Positions 3,001 through 62,133 are shown, counted from the stretch's first letter. The stretch is DNA of 64,000 nucleotides from a virus (IMGVR_UViG_3300032180_000001:96001-160000), one strand, 5' to 3'. The notes: generated from the letters alone by a model not told the origin. Translations and numbers: made by a program.

Positions 3001-6000
3001 CACACCGCCACTCTTGCTGGCCATTGCGGTGAGCGCACTTCCGTATAGTTCGAATACCTGCGGGCGAACTTGATCCTGCAGCGCACTGAAAGAATTACCT
3101 AGTGAACTTACCTTTGTCGTAACGCCACCTGCTTGAGCGCCTAGCTTCTGAAGACTACCGCCTGCCGACACCACCATGAAATTCATCTGCGTGCCCATAG
3201 CCGTCGTCACAGTACCCAGATTTTTCACATATGTGGTAACCTGCGTAACCGCATCTTTGGCAGCAAGAGCAAATCCGCCGAGACCGAGCGCCAGCGTAGC
3301 CAGCGCCGGAATCCAGACGGCAAAAATTTCAACAGCCAGTTCCATGGCGATATGCCAGAGCTTGACGCTTTTCGCCGCACCATTAAATGCCTGAACCTGC
3401 TGCTGCATCCAGCCGAACCAGCCACCCGCACCCTTTGTGAGGAACGGGGTAATACCACCTCCGCCGGCTGCACCTGCCGCACCTGCTGCAGCGGCTGCAA
3501 GAACTCCACCCCCTCCACCGCCCTTGCCCCCGCCTGCACTCCCAGCCATAGTAGTGGCCATGACGGAACGCAATCTCCCGTACGCAGAGGCGAGATCTTT
3601 CACCCGGGCGATGTCTCCGGCGGTAGCCTTACTGAGGTCTATACTAGCTATATCTTTCAGTTCATCCTGAAGTCTTATCGCTTCGACAGCAATATCAGCT
3701 AGTACCCTCTTGGCGGAATCGCTGTCAACATGAGTTGCAAGGCTTATCAGGGTTTCCTTTATCTTCTTCGACTCAGCATCAAGCATAAATAGCTTATTCA
3801 TCGCCTCCGTAATGTCAATATTAGCGGCTGCGGTCTGCGGTGCAAGAAACTTCTGATATTCTTTAAGTGCAGCTTCCTGAAGTTTGCCGAGATCATTCCA
3901 GTCTTTCGTCATTTTCCGGGCTAGGTCATCCCAGGCTTTCCGCTGGTCCGCGTCAAACTTAAGATTATCCTTATTAGCGGACGCTTGCAGCTTACTGAGA
4001 TCATTCCAGTCTTTTGTCATTTTCCGGGCTAGGTCATCCCAGGTCTTCTGCTGATCCGCACCACCAGCAGCGCCACTCGCCGTATGCGCGGCTTTGACCC
4101 GCTTCAGTTCCTTTTCTGCCTGACTTAGCAGGGTTACCATCCGGATAACAGTGTCCGCCGCTGCCGCCTGGCTCATGAGGTCGACAGTCGACTGCTTCAT
4201 CTCATTCGATAGCTTGCTCTGCTCAATCCGGAGAATCATGGCCTGAGCAGCAGAATAACCGGCCTTCTCACCGAGATCAGACGTTGCAGCGTCAAGTTCC
4301 TTTAGTTTTGCTATCATATCAGCAGGAATAATAGTATTAAGCGGTTCGAATGCCTTTGCTGACTTTGCTGCCTGCGCTGCTGTTGCCGCCATAGTCGCGC
4401 CCAGTCCGCCGGTACTATCGGCTGCGGCATCTGCTGCCTTTTCCTGTACTTTTTCCGCAGCAGCAGCCAGGTACTCAGCCGCAGCCATCCCGCCTATCGC
4501 AGCGGTGGTGACAGTATATCCCTTATCAGCATAACCCCTAACGCCACCCTGACTTGACTCCCCGTATCCCTTGGCGTAAATAGCCCGGACGCGCTCAACC
4601 TCAGCAGCAGTCGTTTCAACTGTGTTCTTGAGCTTACCCCACTTACTAATTTGCAAGGTGATCGAAGTGTCCGCTGCTGCCGTTACCCGCTGATACTCCT
4701 GAAGGAAGCCTTTGCCCGTACCTACTTTCTCCGTCCAAGTGACTAGCTCCGCTGTTGCTTTCTCCATCGCCGGTGCCAGATTAACTTCCGGGGTGATCTT
4801 TGGCTTTTCCGTTGCGATTTTTTCGTCGAGCGCTGCTGCTTCCGCTAGTGCCGGTTTTTCATCAAGCTTCGGAGTAACAACCGGCGTATCAGCTTGATTG
4901 AAAGCAGCTTTCGCAGCCGTAGCAGCCTCTTTACTGCCATTCTCTATCGCCGTCCTGAACTCCCGGGTCGCGGCTTCCTTATTTACAGTTAGCGGCACCG
5001 CGACGGGCTTCATGACCTCCCCTACCCGGGCCTTAGCCGCCGTCATCATCATGTCCTGATACAGCTTATCGCGTGCTGCTTCCGACATCTTCGGCTCAAC
5101 AGGCACCTCGACTGGCTTACTGATCTTCGCGTCAAGCGCTGCCACCTCCGCCGTCGCCGGTCCCAGATCAACCTTCGGCTGAATGAATTCTTGCGACGAT
5201 ACTCGGTGCTTGTATTCCCCGCCGACAAACATGGCCTGCTGCCGCTGAAGATCTGTCAATGTCTGCTGGTTATGCTGCGGGACAAGGTTAACTTTCTGAT
5301 CCCGGTAAAGCTGGACTAGTGCTGCATCTAGATTCTTAACACCACTGAGCGCCGCCCGCAGATCCGTCAGGTTGATGTATCCTCCGGGCCTGTCCCCGCC
5401 TGCGGTTGCCATACTGCGGATCGTGGTCATAATCAGCTTGTCGAGCGCCATAACTTCCGTCATGGCCGGAGCCGTGTCCGCAGTAATCGACACCTCGGGC
5501 TTCTCTGCTTCTATAGCTTTGTCAAGCGCTGTGCATTCTGCCATGGCAGGAGCTGTGTTCAGTTCGGGGGTAACGACGGGCTTAGCTGCGGTAAGAGCAG
5601 CCTGAAATTTTTCCTGAACCTTGCGCATAAGAGCGGATGACTCGAAAGCTGCAAGGAACTCATTTATATCCGGAACAGCTTCGACAGGAACGGTTAGCTT
5701 AGTACTACTCCATTGTGCGCCAAGTGCCTGTGCGGCGGCAAGATTAGCATCCTCAACTTCTGTTCTATAGGTATCAAAAAATTTCTTCTGTGCCTTCGTC
5801 AGCGGAACCGTGATCGCCTCAGCAGTTGCGTCACCCGCACCCTTCATCGTTGTCCGGACCTTGTCGGCAAACCCGGTTAGCGCTGTCTCCGACTCTTCTA
5901 TGCTCGGCCCGAGATCAACCGGTATCTCAACAGGATTGGCCTTCACCTCCGCAACAGCCGCGGTAACAGCCGTTGCGACCTCCGGCATGACCTTCGACGT

Positions 6001-20631: not shown

Positions 20632-21712
20632 TTACAGGTCGTCTAGCGCCCGCAGCAGCTTCCTGGCGTTCGCTTCGAAAGTTCTGTCGGCAACAGCTTC
20701 CCGCGCCTGCTCCGCTATCTTGCCCCGTTCTGCCTCGTGCGTGATATACCAGTGCAGGATTTCGCTGGCATCTTCCGGGTCGGTGAACCGCGGCAGCATG
20801 TGCAGCACTTCGTCTCCTTCCGGGCGCGCGTCCCGAAGGAAGGGCAATCCGATGGCCGCCATCTCTACCTCGCGCGGCCCCATGGCCCAGCCCTGGCCAG
20901 CGTAGGCGTCTTCGGACTCACGCCGGTACAGATTGATCCCCATCTTTGCGTGCCGGTACAGCTCCGCCGTTTCCGTGTTGTCCACACAGGTATCGCGACC
21001 GTGCCCGATATACTTCCGCAGCCTGCTGTCCGGTGCCAGCTCCTCGTCCCAGTAATTGCCGCCAAGCAGCACGTCGAGGTTCCCCAGATCGAGGCGCTCG
21101 AAAAACTCGGCACGGCTCTTGAAGCAGGTTCCGATGAAGGTCAGATCGGCAGCCAGCTCCGGGTTCACCGGCCCGCGCCGAGGGTAGTGCACGTCCGGGC
21201 GGTACGCGTGCGGCATGTACAGCGCCGGGCCAAGTTCCCGGTACGCAGCGATATTAACTGGATCGTTGAGGAGGTTCAGGTCAGCATGCTGAGCCCGGTC
21301 CAGTTGCTCTCCGTCCTGATAAGTAAGGCGATTCTGTATGAAGGATCACTTGCTTCATTTTCCGTAGCTTGAAAAGCTGGAACATGCCCCCGGTAATAAA
21401 GAACCCGGACACGTACAGAATAACGTCAGGCCAGAAAGTCATCGCCGCGTGGGTCAGCCCCTGCATCGACATGACGATGGCGTCCTTTTGACTCTTCACG
21501 GCCTGCTCGACGACAGGAAGCCCCTGTTCGTCCGTCACAATGTTGCCATGCTCATCTGTTTTCGGAAGAAGAGCCTTGGAATAAAACACGAGCCGATCGT
21601 TCAGGTTATACATAAGGACCTCATTGCCCAGCTCGCGCAATGCATCAGCCCATCCGTAGTAAACATCAGCAACCGAGAAGTCCGGGCCGGGGTGACATAT
21701 CAGAATACGCAC
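20632..21712 (-). CDS. CgeB/GT-B-like glycosyltransferase split by a +4 nt discontinuity at a UUA codon (21325-21319)
   Basis: The N-part (MRILICHPGPDFSVADVY...HTESPY) and C-part (QDGEQLDRAQHADLNLLND...DLTFIGTCFKSR...MGPREVEMAAIGLPF) are in different frames, joined at CCT TAC T TAT CAG. Confidence 0.8.
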
Positions 21713-21821
21713 AAAACCACCTCCTCCCGATGACACACTCGAAATTTTATGGTACGATTTATTCGGCTCGGTAGCACCGGTCAGGGGTACTTCCGAGCCT
21801 GATCGCATCGGAGGTGCGACT

Positions 21822-22355
21822 ATGCCTGATCATACACAGGCGGAGCGCTGGCTGCCAGTGCCGGGGTACGAAGGATTCTACGAGATCAGTAATCGCGGTC
21901 AGGTCCGCAGCATCCGCCACATGACGCAGGCCGGATGGCGCGGTGGCAAGCTGCTCTCACCGTTCCTCGATGCCGATGGGTACTTGCGTGTCAACCTCAG
22001 TCGTTATGGTGCTACTCGAAGTGTTACCATCCACACTCTCGTGCTGACAGCATTCGACCGTCCCCCTGCAAGCGGGGAGCAAGGCAGGCACGGACTCGGC
22101 GGGAAAACTGACAACCATCTAGAGAACCTGGAATGGGGAACGCCACAGGAAAACAGTGACGATAAATACAGAGACGGCACGATGGCCTGTGGCGAGAAGC
22201 AGGGAAATTCAAAACTTACCGCTACTGATATAAAATCAATCAGAACTCGTCGTGCTGCCGGGGAGGAAGCAAGTTCACTAGCTCTTAACTTTAAAATAAG
22301 TGAGACACATGTAAACCGAATCGTAAAGCGTGAATCGTGGCGTCACATACCGTAG
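21822..22355 (+). CDS. NUMOD4-HNH endonuclease with C-terminal HTH
   Basis: ERWLPVPGYEGFYEISNRGQVRS...HTLVLTAF...HGLGGKTDNHLENLEWGTPQENSDD. Confidence 0.9.
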   Translation: MPDHTQAERWLPVPGYEGFYEISNRGQVRSIRHMTQAGWRGGKLLSPFLDADGYLRVNLSRYGATRSVTIHTLVLTAFDRPPASGEQGRHGLGGKTDNHLENLEWGTPQENSDDKYRDGTMACGEKQGNSKLTATDIKSIRTRRAAGEEASSLALNFKISETHVNRIVKRESWRHIP

Positions 22356-58755: not shown

Positions 58756-59448
58756 ATGACCAGTGGACGTAACCCTGACTACATCCCGGGCAAGACCTGC
58801 GAGAACTGCGGGAAGCCTATTCCGTGGCGTCCCGGGATAGAGGTGCGAGCGAGAGCCCGCTGGTGCAGCAAAGACTGCTTCCAAACCGCTGGACGCGATG
58901 CTGCACCTAAGCCGTGTGAAAACTGCGGCAAGCCAATCCCGTGGCGGGAAGGCCGCGCAGCCCGTACTAAGGCTCGCTTCTGCTGCGACGCCTGTAAATT
59001 CGCTTGGCAGAAGCTCCACCCGCCGAATCCACGACAACCTCGGGAAACGAAGCCATGCGACACATGCGGCAAGCCTGTCGAGTACCTTCCATCCCAGAAG
59101 CTGGCAAGTAAGTACCCGAACGGAAACATCTACTGCTCCCGAGAATGCTTCGGTATCGGGCATTCTAAAACCATGACGGGACGCCGTCCCAGCGGAGGCA
59201 TCTATACCTCGCCCAGCACCTTCCGACTGATGATCCGACGCGAATTCTTCGACCGCTGCGCCATCTGCGGCTGGGACACAACCCCGTGCGACGTCGCGCA
59301 CATCATCGATCGGAAAGACGGCGGACCCGACTCGCTGGAGAACGTTGTGATGCTGTGCCCGAACCACCACCGGGCCTTCGACATGAAGTTGATCCCCGTC
59401 GAGACAATCCGGCTGGCACGAGAAACGATCCTGCGTAATCATCAGTGA
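58756..59448 (+). CDS. HNH endonuclease with CxxC..CS Zn-finger repeats; probably leaderless
   Basis: CAICGW...DVAHII...GGPDSLENVVMLCPNHHRAFD; TGtTATACT 6 nt before the ATG. Confidence 0.88.
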   Translation: MTSGRNPDYIPGKTCENCGKPIPWRPGIEVRARARWCSKDCFQTAGRDAAPKPCENCGKPIPWREGRAARTKARFCCDACKFAWQKLHPPNPRQPRETKPCDTCGKPVEYLPSQKLASKYPNGNIYCSRECFGIGHSKTMTGRRPSGGIYTSPSTFRLMIRREFFDRCAICGWDTTPCDVAHIIDRKDGGPDSLENVVMLCPNHHRAFDMKLIPVETIRLARETILRNHQ

Positions 59449-62133
59449 TCACCGTGCCCGTTTCCGTTACCATTCATTGATCCGGCCAGGACTGACCGCT
59501 CCGCATCGGACGGTATCCACGCCCCAACGTATTCAGGCTCGACCTTTTCCGCACGAGCCCGTCCTTCACGCGCCAGCGCCCGCAGGACAGCTATCAGACC
59601 ATCCGTGGACAGATCTCCGGCATCTCGCGTCTTCGTCAGAACGGCTGCAAGCAATGATGCGGGAGATTTCGCAGACGGCTCAATATTAGGCTGCGCGATA
59701 CCTTCCTGCTGAAGCTTTTCCAGCCGGTCTGCGGCTAGGTCCATCTCCAGCGTAATCTGGGGAAGCATGGAGTTCGGAATGCCGCGAATAGAGTGAGCCA
59801 TCGCGACCATGACATCCGCCGGGATAACCTCATTGCCTGCCCCGCCTGGAAGTGGCCCCATGTCTTCCTTCTCGCGAATCTCGTCGATGGTCAGGATCCC
59901 CGTGTCCCGCTGAGACTCGTAGATCTCCGTCCGGGTCTTCAGATCAGTCTTCAGCAGCGCGTCAGAATTAAAGCGAACGTACCGGTTAGCGGGAATAATA
60001 TCGAAGAACGCGGTCTCTAGCCTAACCATCCACGGACGCAAGGATTCAATGACCTGAAGGGTACTCATCTCTACCGTGTTGCCAGTAAAATAGCAGGTGC
60101 CGTTCCGACGCGCATACCAAGACTTACTTGGCGTACTTACACACCATACAAGATCTGTAACCTCGTCGGTCACGTACTCCGGATGACCCTTCGGCTTACG
60201 CCACGGTGAAATCTGAATCGGCATAACATACATACCATGCTTATTCGGTCCCCGTACCACGCCCGAGCGTCCAGACAGTGCGCAGGCAACCTGGAACGCA
60301 TCAAGCCGCGCTTTATCCTTCTGTGCCATCGTCCAACTTGCGGCATGCCGAGAGCCATCAGCATCGAGGGACGTTTGAATGAAAAGCTCAAGCTGTGCCC
60401 TGGTAAGCTGGCTCAGAAATTCCGTAGAAACTACCTTAGCAGGAGCATGCTTTGTCAGCACCTGCCCAGCTTGCGCGTTCAACCTGAAATGCACGTGCCC
60501 CCGCTCGTCCAGGTCTTCCTGCCATGCCGGACCGCCATCGTGCTGTCCCGTAAGACCATTTCGCAGATTTCGCACCACACTCGCGTGTGAACCGCACTTC
60601 CGAGCTATTCCCCGATTCGTCCCACTCGGATCACGAAGTAGCTCAACCCGGATAAGATCCCGCTTCTTCCGCCCACGCCCGCCTAGCAACGAAACGCCAC
60701 GCTCTACAGCACTTGGCCCAAACATCTCCGTCAGCGCTGCCCTAATCCGCATTACGTTCAGCGGGTTCACTCGCTCCGACTGAGCAATTGTCACGGCACC
60801 TGATTCCCCGATCCATCCCTCTGTCCAGAACCAAGCCACCAACTCAGCTAGTGCGTCCGACCACTTCGGCTCTACCGGAGTCACAACCGGAGCCGCCGCG
60901 CAGACCCGCGAATTAATCGGCATAGTTTCTGTAGTTCGCCACTGGTAACCTTCGTTTCTGCGCCTTTCCCCAGACAACATCACAGGCCAACGATGATTTG
61001 GCGTGGTTACCGACGAATGTGACAGGTTCTCCAGGCGGATAACCGGATAAGACGCGTCATCAAAAACATGTACCTTTTGAACTGGCTGCCATTCAGCCAT
61101 ACCCGTTTCAGTATTCAGTCCAAGACAAGTGTCCCCGGCAAGCACCTGATCGTGCCTCAGCCAACCGCGCAAGGTTAGGATTTCCGTCTCAGCATCAGCG
61201 CAGTTGTAGGTTAGACTGTCAGCCCTTTTCCCGCCAACGCGATCCGGAGGAAGCCCATAAATGGCAGCAAGCTGGGTAGCGCTAAACTGCTGACTCTCGA
61301 TGAATTGAGCTTCAGACGGCGGAACTGTTATCGGCTTGTATTCCCAGTCTCGACCGTAGACGAGTGGCGTATGGTTCCGGATCGCATCGACTAGCTGCTC
61401 CTTGATCTGGTCAGACGCATCCTTATCCACTTCCAGCTGATTATTCTGAAAGGTGCCTGGTGGAAAACCACCGGAAGCGAACCAGTCGTTGCCAAACCGC
61501 TGGGCTTCCGTTCCCGACGAGATCGTCAGCATGAAATGCCGTAGCGGAGAAATACCCTCCGTACGGCCGGGGAGCGTAAATGCCCGGATATGAAAAAGCT
61601 CGTCACGCCAGTTTTCAATCAACCGTCCGTAGACGTACACCCGGGTACGAAGGGGATTCCATGGCTGCTGCGGGTCATCAATGACGTTAACCATGTCCGG
61701 CGGAATCCAATCGATTCCAGTCGGGTAACTAAAGCCATCGCGACCGGTGACGAAACCCCAGGCGTTTCCGTGCAGGAGCAGTGATGTCATGCACTGGTAC
61801 ACCCAGTCAAAGGTGTTCGCGCTGACTGATGGCCGATCAAAAATAGACGGTCCCCAGTACCTGGCCGCAACGCCACCGCCGGGGGCTCGTGTGTAAAGCT
61901 TGATTGGCAGGCTGGCGAGAGATTCGGCTAGCAACCGGACGCAGGAATAGAGTGCCGGAAGACCGAGTGCCTGATCCTGGCCGTAGAACGCCCGGGACGG
62001 ATGAATCGGCCCACCTTGCGAAAATTTGAAGTAAATAGGGTGAATCCCATGGACGAATTAATCGCCATGGAACTCCGCCGATAACGCGCTGCTCAACACT
62101 TCTGTCAGCCAAGATGCGATCAAGGAAACCCAT
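59442..62133 (-). CDS. HK97-type portal protein, needing a +4 nt recoding event at 62037-62031 and intein excision
   Basis: N-part MGFLDRILADRSVEQRVIGGVPWR(LIR)PWDSPY joins FKFSQGGP...ALGLPALYSCVRLLAESLASLP...LLHGNAW...GISPL...QLAAIYGLPP...|intein|...TIDEIREKED. Confidence 0.88.
60078..61202 (-). mobile_element. Intein with LAGLIDADG endonuclease and an HTH-like insert (375 aa)
   Basis: CADAETEILTLRGW...TTPNHRW...AWFWTEGW...SLDADGS...DLVWCVSTPSKSWYARRNGTCYFTGN followed by Thr. Confidence 0.92.

Follow-up and report, generated by a model that had tools for sequence, protein, structure and literature searches.

A probable UUA-triggered bypass cassette, in frame, in the portal gene of an uncultured soil phage

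The portal gene of an uncultured soil phage carries nine nucleotides, TTA ATT CGT, directly behind its codon for Arg24 (CGA), and these are probably a short non-coding cassette that ribosomes bypass on meeting UUA, of the type proposed for the terminase gene of phage phiHau3. The gene lies in a window of 64,000 nucleotides (the whole stretch of DNA that was analysed), which corresponds to bases 96001-160000 of a viral record of 184,980 bp (IMGVR_UViG_3300032180_000001; 59% GC, estimated completeness 99%). On the minus strand, 62070..62047 reads CCA TGG CGA TTA ATT CGT CCA TGG in the frame of the ATG at 62133, exactly as the original prediction had it. Read straight through, this site (site 1) gives ..GGVPWRLIRPWDSPY.., and with TTA ATT CGT omitted it gives ..GGVPWRPWDSPY... 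Site 1 would be a variant of a rare type of recoding that is already known, and from the comparisons below we infer that a substantial share of ribosomes is likely to hop over it.

Portal codons 1-33 (MGFLDRIL...GGVPWRLIRPWDSPY) are in one frame, and the other 871 follow in the next. To connect the two, a second cassette (TAT T TAC, 62037..62031) is required. Its TTA is found nine codons downstream of the first (27 nt from TTA to TTA), where a decisive second site had been predicted.

The main evidence comes from related portals. Relatives (denoted by L and a number) were collected by protein-based retrieval of viral contigs and by two pattern searches, giving 68 distinct versions of the 20-codon stretch GGVPW..GGP. 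In 25 of them the stretch is uninterrupted; every one of these reads PW-[R/Q/K/V]-PW with nothing between, lacks the nine nucleotides and contains no in-frame TTA. This agrees with the PWRPW motif that had been predicted for homologs. The opposite outcome, homologs that keep LIR by means of ordinary Leu codons, was looked for in the alignments and not seen. The unbiased sample holds 27 distinct interrupted N-termini versus 25 uninterrupted ones. The comparison thus strongly supports a putative hop site where ribosomes would take off from CGA and land on CGT, the insert being 9 nt long.

Cassettes of the form CGA[TTA..]CGN occur at the same Arg codon in relatives, with skipped lengths of 6, 7, 8, 9, 10 and 12 nt (Table 1). 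The forms of 7, 8 and 10 nt disrupt the frame of an essential gene, and are therefore not translatable. The closest relatives in the tree, L001 and L003, have 10-nt forms at this codon, and in a nucleotide alignment the gap of the window (TTAATT) equals the gap TTAATTT of L003 and L152 less one T. The window cassette is homologous to the frame-breaking cassettes of L001 and L003.

Table 1. Forms of the Arg-site cassette in relatives; the gap is in square brackets and the skipped length includes the landing codon
Cassette	Skipped (nt)	Reading frame
CGA[TTA]CGC	6	in frame
CGA[TTAC/TTAA/TTAT]CGN	7	broken; commonest form
CGA[TTACC]CGA	8	broken
CGA[TTATCT]CGC	9	in frame
CGA[TTATTA]CGT	9	in frame; two TTAs
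CGA[TTAAAAT]CGT	10	broken
CGA[TTAATTT]CGA	10	broken
CGA[ TTAACCAAC ]CGC	12	in frame

Two further relatives deserve mention. L005 (positions 1158-1260), which belongs to the clade of the window phage, is the sole uninterrupted relative in which the Arg of PWRPW is encoded by CGA. This looks like a precise loss of a cassette, gap and landing codon together, with the take-off codon left behind. The other case is the pair L128 and L129, which have different cassettes; the two share 99.7% identity in a stretch of 780 nt downstream of the GGP motif, but only 63% upstream of it. The drop in identity points to a recombination breakpoint in the cassette zone; rapid cassette turnover, for which the pair might have been taken as an example, was rejected because the two are recombinants. 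The cultured-phage collection yielded no close relative of the portal N-terminus, nor any of the glycosyltransferase gene described further below.

The same pattern holds across the whole family. A frame-aware parse gave 39 distinct cassettes, which occupy 10 codon positions, all within the 20-codon stretch; 38 of the cassettes begin with an in-frame TTA (the remaining one begins with TGA). In 35 of the 39, the last three bases of the skipped block and the codon that precedes the block agree in their first two bases; the in-frame cassettes behave alike (10/12). Skipped lengths range from 2 to 13 nt, and 12 of 39 (31%) are divisible by three (binomial versus 1/3, p=0.87), so as far as the sequences tell, the lengths match a process that is blind to the frame. 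Two of the in-frame cassettes contain an in-frame stop, namely CGA[ TTAATTTAA ]CGT in L025 and CCT[TGA]CCT in L012, from which it follows that at least some in-frame cassettes must be skipped. L012 (positions 3001-3100 of IMGVR_UViG_3300036828_000686, 108.7 kb) has three cassettes in all, GTT[TTAT]GTC, AAT[TT]AAC and CCT[TGA]CCT. The last of these, with matched codons around a stop, has the classic layout of a stop-hop, here in a natural gene.

Simple +1 frameshifting was considered as a common mechanism and rejected, since all three length residue classes occur, landing codons match take-off codons, and several gaps begin with TTAA or TTAG, where a plain +1 shift would hit a stop. The window copy is one of these; owing to the TAA at 62060..62058, a simple +1 slip at CGA would terminate. 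Hopping of peptidyl-tRNA covers all length residue classes, the matched codons and the rare A-site codon together, and is for this reason the simplest single mechanism. Removal of the extra bases at the nucleic-acid level, whether as an assembly error, as heterogeneity within the population or by excision from the RNA, is extremely improbable, given that the same cassette architecture is found in dozens of independent metagenome assemblies and that a rare A-site codon with a matched landing codon is a translational signature. Among public sequencing runs, one DNA run, probably from the source sample, contains the stretch, and no RNA run is listed for it.

The codon statistics point in the same direction and put the observation well beyond chance. 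In the 30 longest open frames of the 185-kb genome, TTA accounts for 6 of 21,794 codons (0.28 per 1000), compared with 6.7 per 1000 for CTA and 6.1 per 1000 for TTG. Across 71 distinct related portal bodies (18,256 codons) none of 1,616 Leu codons is TTA, and CGA makes up only 19 of 1,217 CGN codons. In the unbiased sample CGA is nevertheless the Arg codon before the insert in 10 of 10 cases, versus 1 of 23 CGN codons without an insert (Fisher p=1.2e-7). Take-off codons in general are rare, weakly pairing synonyms (GTT, GAT, AAT, TAT, TCT, TTT, CCT, CAA and CGA), none of which ends in C, and landing codons are often common synonyms that do end in C. By the wobble rules, an inosine-adenine pair would serve to read CGA and G-U pairs to read NNU codons, and the hop would be a move from a weak to a stronger pairing in the P site. 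The distant genomic relatives of the portal (27-35% identity) all belong to Actinomycetota (Streptomyces, Actinomadura, Nocardioidaceae and others), so the host is presumably actinobacterial, which fits the avoidance of TTA. No tRNA genes were found in the 185-kb phage record.

These data also bear on the plainest alternative, an ordinary insertion of three codons that the portal tolerates and that is always translated as Leu-Ile-Arg, with no recoding at the site. The insert is in frame and free of stops, and a few in-frame TTA codons do occur elsewhere in the genome. Such an insertion would, however, split the invariant GGVPW-x-PW motif by means of a Leu codon that related portals do not use at all. 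It would also end in a second Arg codon, as does every frame-breaking cassette at this site, and the 10-nt version of the same gap in the nearest relatives is untranslatable. We therefore regard constant translation of the insert as very unlikely. L005, the closest uninterrupted homolog, was modelled with AlphaFold2 over its N-terminal 300 residues from a 22-sequence alignment; the model has a mean pLDDT of 48, and residues 1-81 lie below 50.

Around site 1 the RNA is predicted to fold into a hairpin of 30 nt, in which the take-off CGA tops the 5' arm and UUA sits in the loop (-15.5 kcal/mol, z = -4.49; none of 200 shuffles folds equally well). Comparable hairpins with UUA in the loop are also predicted for the other cassettes at the Arg/Gln site (median z -2.4, n=26). 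An element resembling an internal Shine-Dalgarno (SD) sequence precedes the take-off codon; GGAG or GAGG occurs at this place in 16 of 27 sequences interrupted at the Arg or Gln site versus 7 of 38 other sequences (Fisher p=0.0013, uncorrected for phylogeny or GC). A stem-loop and an upstream SD element are the two stimulators that were proposed for phiHau3 (PMC10732093), and their counterparts at site 1 are putative stimulators as well.

Taken together, hopping at site 1 might proceed as follows (coordinates in Table 2). A ribosome with peptidyl-tRNA-Arg on CGA in its P site would encounter UUA in the A site, for which the tRNA would be scarce in the presumed actinobacterial host. During the stall the weak pairing on CGA would release, the same tRNA presumably reading CGA poorly and CGU or CGC well. 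The mRNA would then slide by 9 nt, the tRNA-Arg would re-pair on CGU, and decoding would restart at CCA to give the conserved ..GGVPWRPWDSPY.., with ..VPWRPWDSPYFK.. as the junction peptide of the hop. An equivalent hop would be needed at TAT-T-TAC nine codons on, in order to enter the main portal frame. If UUA were decoded at site 1 instead, the chain would contain LIR within an otherwise invariant motif. A cell that decodes UUA at site 1 would mostly decode it at site 2 too, and the chain would then stop after 102 residues. The original prediction saw in the frame-neutral site 1 a free pass for ribosomes when the tRNA for UUA is scarce; under the mechanism described here it would rather be one more obstacle that needs a hop.

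Table 2. Coordinates of the features in the window
Feature	Position	Strand	Remarks
Portal start codon ATG (MGFLDRIL...)	62131..62133	-	preceded by GGAGGTGG; N-terminus aligns with homologs starting MGFLDRI/MGLIERI
SD-like GGAG within Gly-Gly-Val codons	62073..62076	-	internal; 8 nt upstream of take-off codon
RNA hairpin, stem CCAUGG/CCAUGG + CGA/UCG, loop UUAAU	62044..62073	-	predicted fold
Take-off codon CGA (Arg24), putative	62062..62064	-	CGA bias at Arg site with insert
TTA (UUA), first codon of insert, presumed slow-to-decode A-site codon	62059..62061	-	codon counts in genome and in related portals
9-nt insert, TTAATT (6-nt gap) + CGT (landing codon)	62053..62061	-	missing from uninterrupted homologs (alignments)
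TAA in +1 frame, immediately after take-off codon	62058..62060	-	also the stop from which the long portal frame runs
Landing codon CGT (Arg), putative	62053..62055	-	decoding would restart at CCA 62052..62050; all Arg-site cassettes end CGN
Second, frame-breaking cassette TAT [T TAC]	62031..62037	-	identical cassette in L112
Take-off codon TAT of second cassette	62037..62035	-	
TTA of second cassette	62034..62032	-	
Landing codon TAC of second cassette	62033..62031	-	
Portal gene body, second frame	59442..62030	-	Pfam Phage_portal, E=1e-52; includes intein-like insert
Intein-like insert in portal	~61202..60078	-	~375 residues
Open frame of 230 aa	62175-62867	+	divergent; adjoins portal start
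Glycosyltransferase gene	20632-21829	-	Pfam Glyco_trans_1_2, C-terminal part
4-nt cassette in glycosyltransferase gene	21325-21316	-	CCT TAC [T TAT] CAG
Open frame with NUMOD4 motif	21696-22355	+	E=8e-17

Several points weigh against a bypass at site 1. As the window cassette has no in-frame stop, ribosomes could physically read it as Leu-Ile-Arg. Long open frames of this genome contain a few other in-frame TTA codons, so UUA is probably decodable to some degree, and codon avoidance is the sole ground on which tRNA-Leu(UAA) is taken to be scarce. The potential to form the stem is partly dictated by coding, with Trp-Arg...Arg-Pro giving GGCG...CGCC and CCATGG being a palindrome. Finally, the 39 cassettes are distinct sequences and do not represent phylogenetically independent events.

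UUA-triggered bypassing was proposed by Smith et al. for the large terminase genes of Streptomyces phage phiHau3 and of the StrepC.1 and S. catenulae prophages (as given in PMC10732093). Using a phiHau3 terminase cassette in which UAA replaced UUA, Antonov et al. 2023 (PMC10732093) detected the junction peptide in E. coli by mass spectrometry. Site 1 shares with this type a rare UUA right after the take-off codon, a short non-coding block that is missing from homologs (7 or 10 nt in the terminases), a landing codon that adjoins the codon where decoding resumes, and the proposed upstream SD-like element and stem-loop. Both affect an essential gene of virion assembly, and the relatives of the window phage point to Actinomycetota. 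A Trp also stands one or two residues before the take-off codon in both, as in KGWG of phiHau3 (PMC5009743) and GGVPWR of the window. At the level of sequence, the window site thus resembles phiHau3 in every defining feature except obligatory disruption of the frame. Its cassette is 9 nt long with no in-frame stop, so that bypassing is not obligatory, whereas the frame is necessarily disrupted by the 7-, 8- and 10-nt cassettes of relatives at the same codon, and by site 2 of the same gene. There are further differences. The window gene encodes a portal and not a terminase, and it belongs to an uncultured 185-kb soil phage of 59% GC. About half of 52 distinct portal N-termini contain cassettes, compared with 3 of 100 terminase genes (PMC10732093), and the portal family uses many positions and gap lengths, with a strong bias of the take-off codon to weakly pairing synonyms such as CGA and NNU.

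Short hops are also known from E. coli, both as stop-hops with matched flanking codons and as bypassing of hungry codons (PMC5009743), and over-expressed bovine placental lactogen has shown an in-frame hop over two codons (PMC5009743; reference 50 of PMC10732093). The elementary event would be the same in the portal: with the A site empty, a peptidyl-tRNA lets go of its codon and pairs again with a cognate codon close by. Both can have in-frame outcomes, and the CCT TGA CCT of L012 has exactly the stop-hop layout. The E. coli cases are, however, synthetic constructs or artefacts of over-expression with low efficiency, whereas the portal layout is natural and recurrent and lies in an essential gene. 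Gene 60 of phage T4 resembles the portal gene in being a phage gene with its take-off codon in a stem-loop, followed by a codon that is not decoded. It differs in the gap (47 nt, for a bypass of 50 nt, versus 6 nt in the window), in the trigger (UAG versus a rare sense codon) and in the link of its insert to a mobile element, and a long nascent-peptide signal is not evident in the portal. With its 6-nt gap and sense A-site codon, the window site is not a programmed bypass of the gene 60 type, though it would be similar in its working. The mitochondria of Magnusiomyces capitatus (PMC5009743) are a further example. They too have many short inserts with an unused A-site codon, where the landing is sometimes matched in two out of three positions. 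Apart from being mitochondrial, these inserts are spread over 12 of 15 protein genes (PMC5009743), whereas in the clade of the window phage they cluster in the 20-codon stretch of the portal, plus one in a glycosyltransferase gene.

Why the window copy is in frame can be explained by the hop model itself. Where the tRNA lands would depend on the codon rather than on the distance, so that drift in length is neutral; neutral insertions and deletions in the gap would then produce both the variety of lengths at one site and the in-frame copy in the window. A length that is a multiple of three is thus most likely an accident of neutral drift rather than design. The original prediction had a tandem device in mind, and in an adaptive version the in-frame cassette would be retained in order to tune the decisive site 2. 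Two routes can be thought of. Either a trailing ribosome, stalled one footprint behind the ribosome at site 2, would give a push by collision, or the hairpin, by refolding where the mRNA exits, would push the mRNA forward during the hop at site 2. All 12 adjacent cassette pairs in the family are spaced 27-35 nt apart (TTA to TTA), about one ribosome footprint, whereas random pairing of the observed positions gives at least 27 nt only half the time (p ~2e-4 uncorrected). The spacing in the window is the minimum, 27 nt, the site-1 hairpin is strong, and for T4 gene 60, refolding of the mRNA at the exit has been discussed as a force behind forward bypassing (bioRxiv 10.1101/2024.12.09.627546). 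On the other hand, the spacing pattern was noticed post hoc, with shared ancestry left uncorrected. A single cassette is all that most interrupted portals have, and the gap length at the site drifts freely from 6 to 12 nt. Frame-breaking first cassettes are spaced in the same way, and the in-frame state is therefore not singled out as selected. We consider retention for tuning unlikely. A broader idea is that of cooperative natural in-frame bypassing, in which TTA-led cassettes stand one footprint apart, the upstream stall or hairpin drives the downstream hop, and portal output is set by the tRNA-Leu(UAA) of the host; this, too, is unlikely.

A 4-nt cassette, CCT TAC [T TAT] CAG, splits the glycosyltransferase gene of the window; its TTA would stand in the A site. 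Seven viral homologs have ..HTESPYQDGEQL.. there without a change of frame, and the split indicates that TTA hopping in this phage would not be confined to the portal. The 5' end of this gene is overlapped on the opposite strand by an open frame with a NUMOD4 motif, of the homing-endonuclease type. A scan of the genome for TTA frame switches was unspecific, with 6 hits for TTA versus 7-19 for control codons, because gene junctions give the same signal. A candidate in-frame cassette, TAC TTA TAC at genome position 168737, was rejected because the real gene is read in another frame. Another, CGG TTA GAG TGG CGG at genome position 174406, is in frame within an open frame of 170 aa, for which relatives were searched and none found. 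The portal gene itself also contains an intein-like insert. Its first residue is a Cys that follows ..SLTYN, and its last residues are ..FTGN, with a Thr next. Matches were obtained to inserts in the TerL and portal genes of phages of Gordonia and Mycobacterium, and no Pfam intein match was found for it at E<=0.01. In the 230-aa open frame beside the portal start, the C-terminus gave weak helix-turn-helix matches (HTH_38, E=0.002, which does not pass the Pfam cut-off).

So far, the case for UUA-triggered bypassing has come from three terminase genes and from reporter work. The clade of soil phages adds a comparative data set of 39 variants at 10 positions, with frame-blind lengths, landing that appears to be directed by the codon, and a bias to weakly pairing take-off codons. 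The in-frame copies are a natural control, as they keep all features of the frame-breaking cassettes though the frame does not require them. A review of recoding from 2016 knew in-frame bypassing only from synthetic constructs, natural occurrences not being known (PMC5009743). Going by the sequence comparisons, the in-frame cassettes, including the copy in the window, are candidates for natural in-frame bypassing. Gene callers will mis-annotate portal genes of this kind as split or truncated. If the bypass is real, these phages would provide rules for short hops, and a natural case in which one gene gives two protein forms, set by the supply of a single tRNA.

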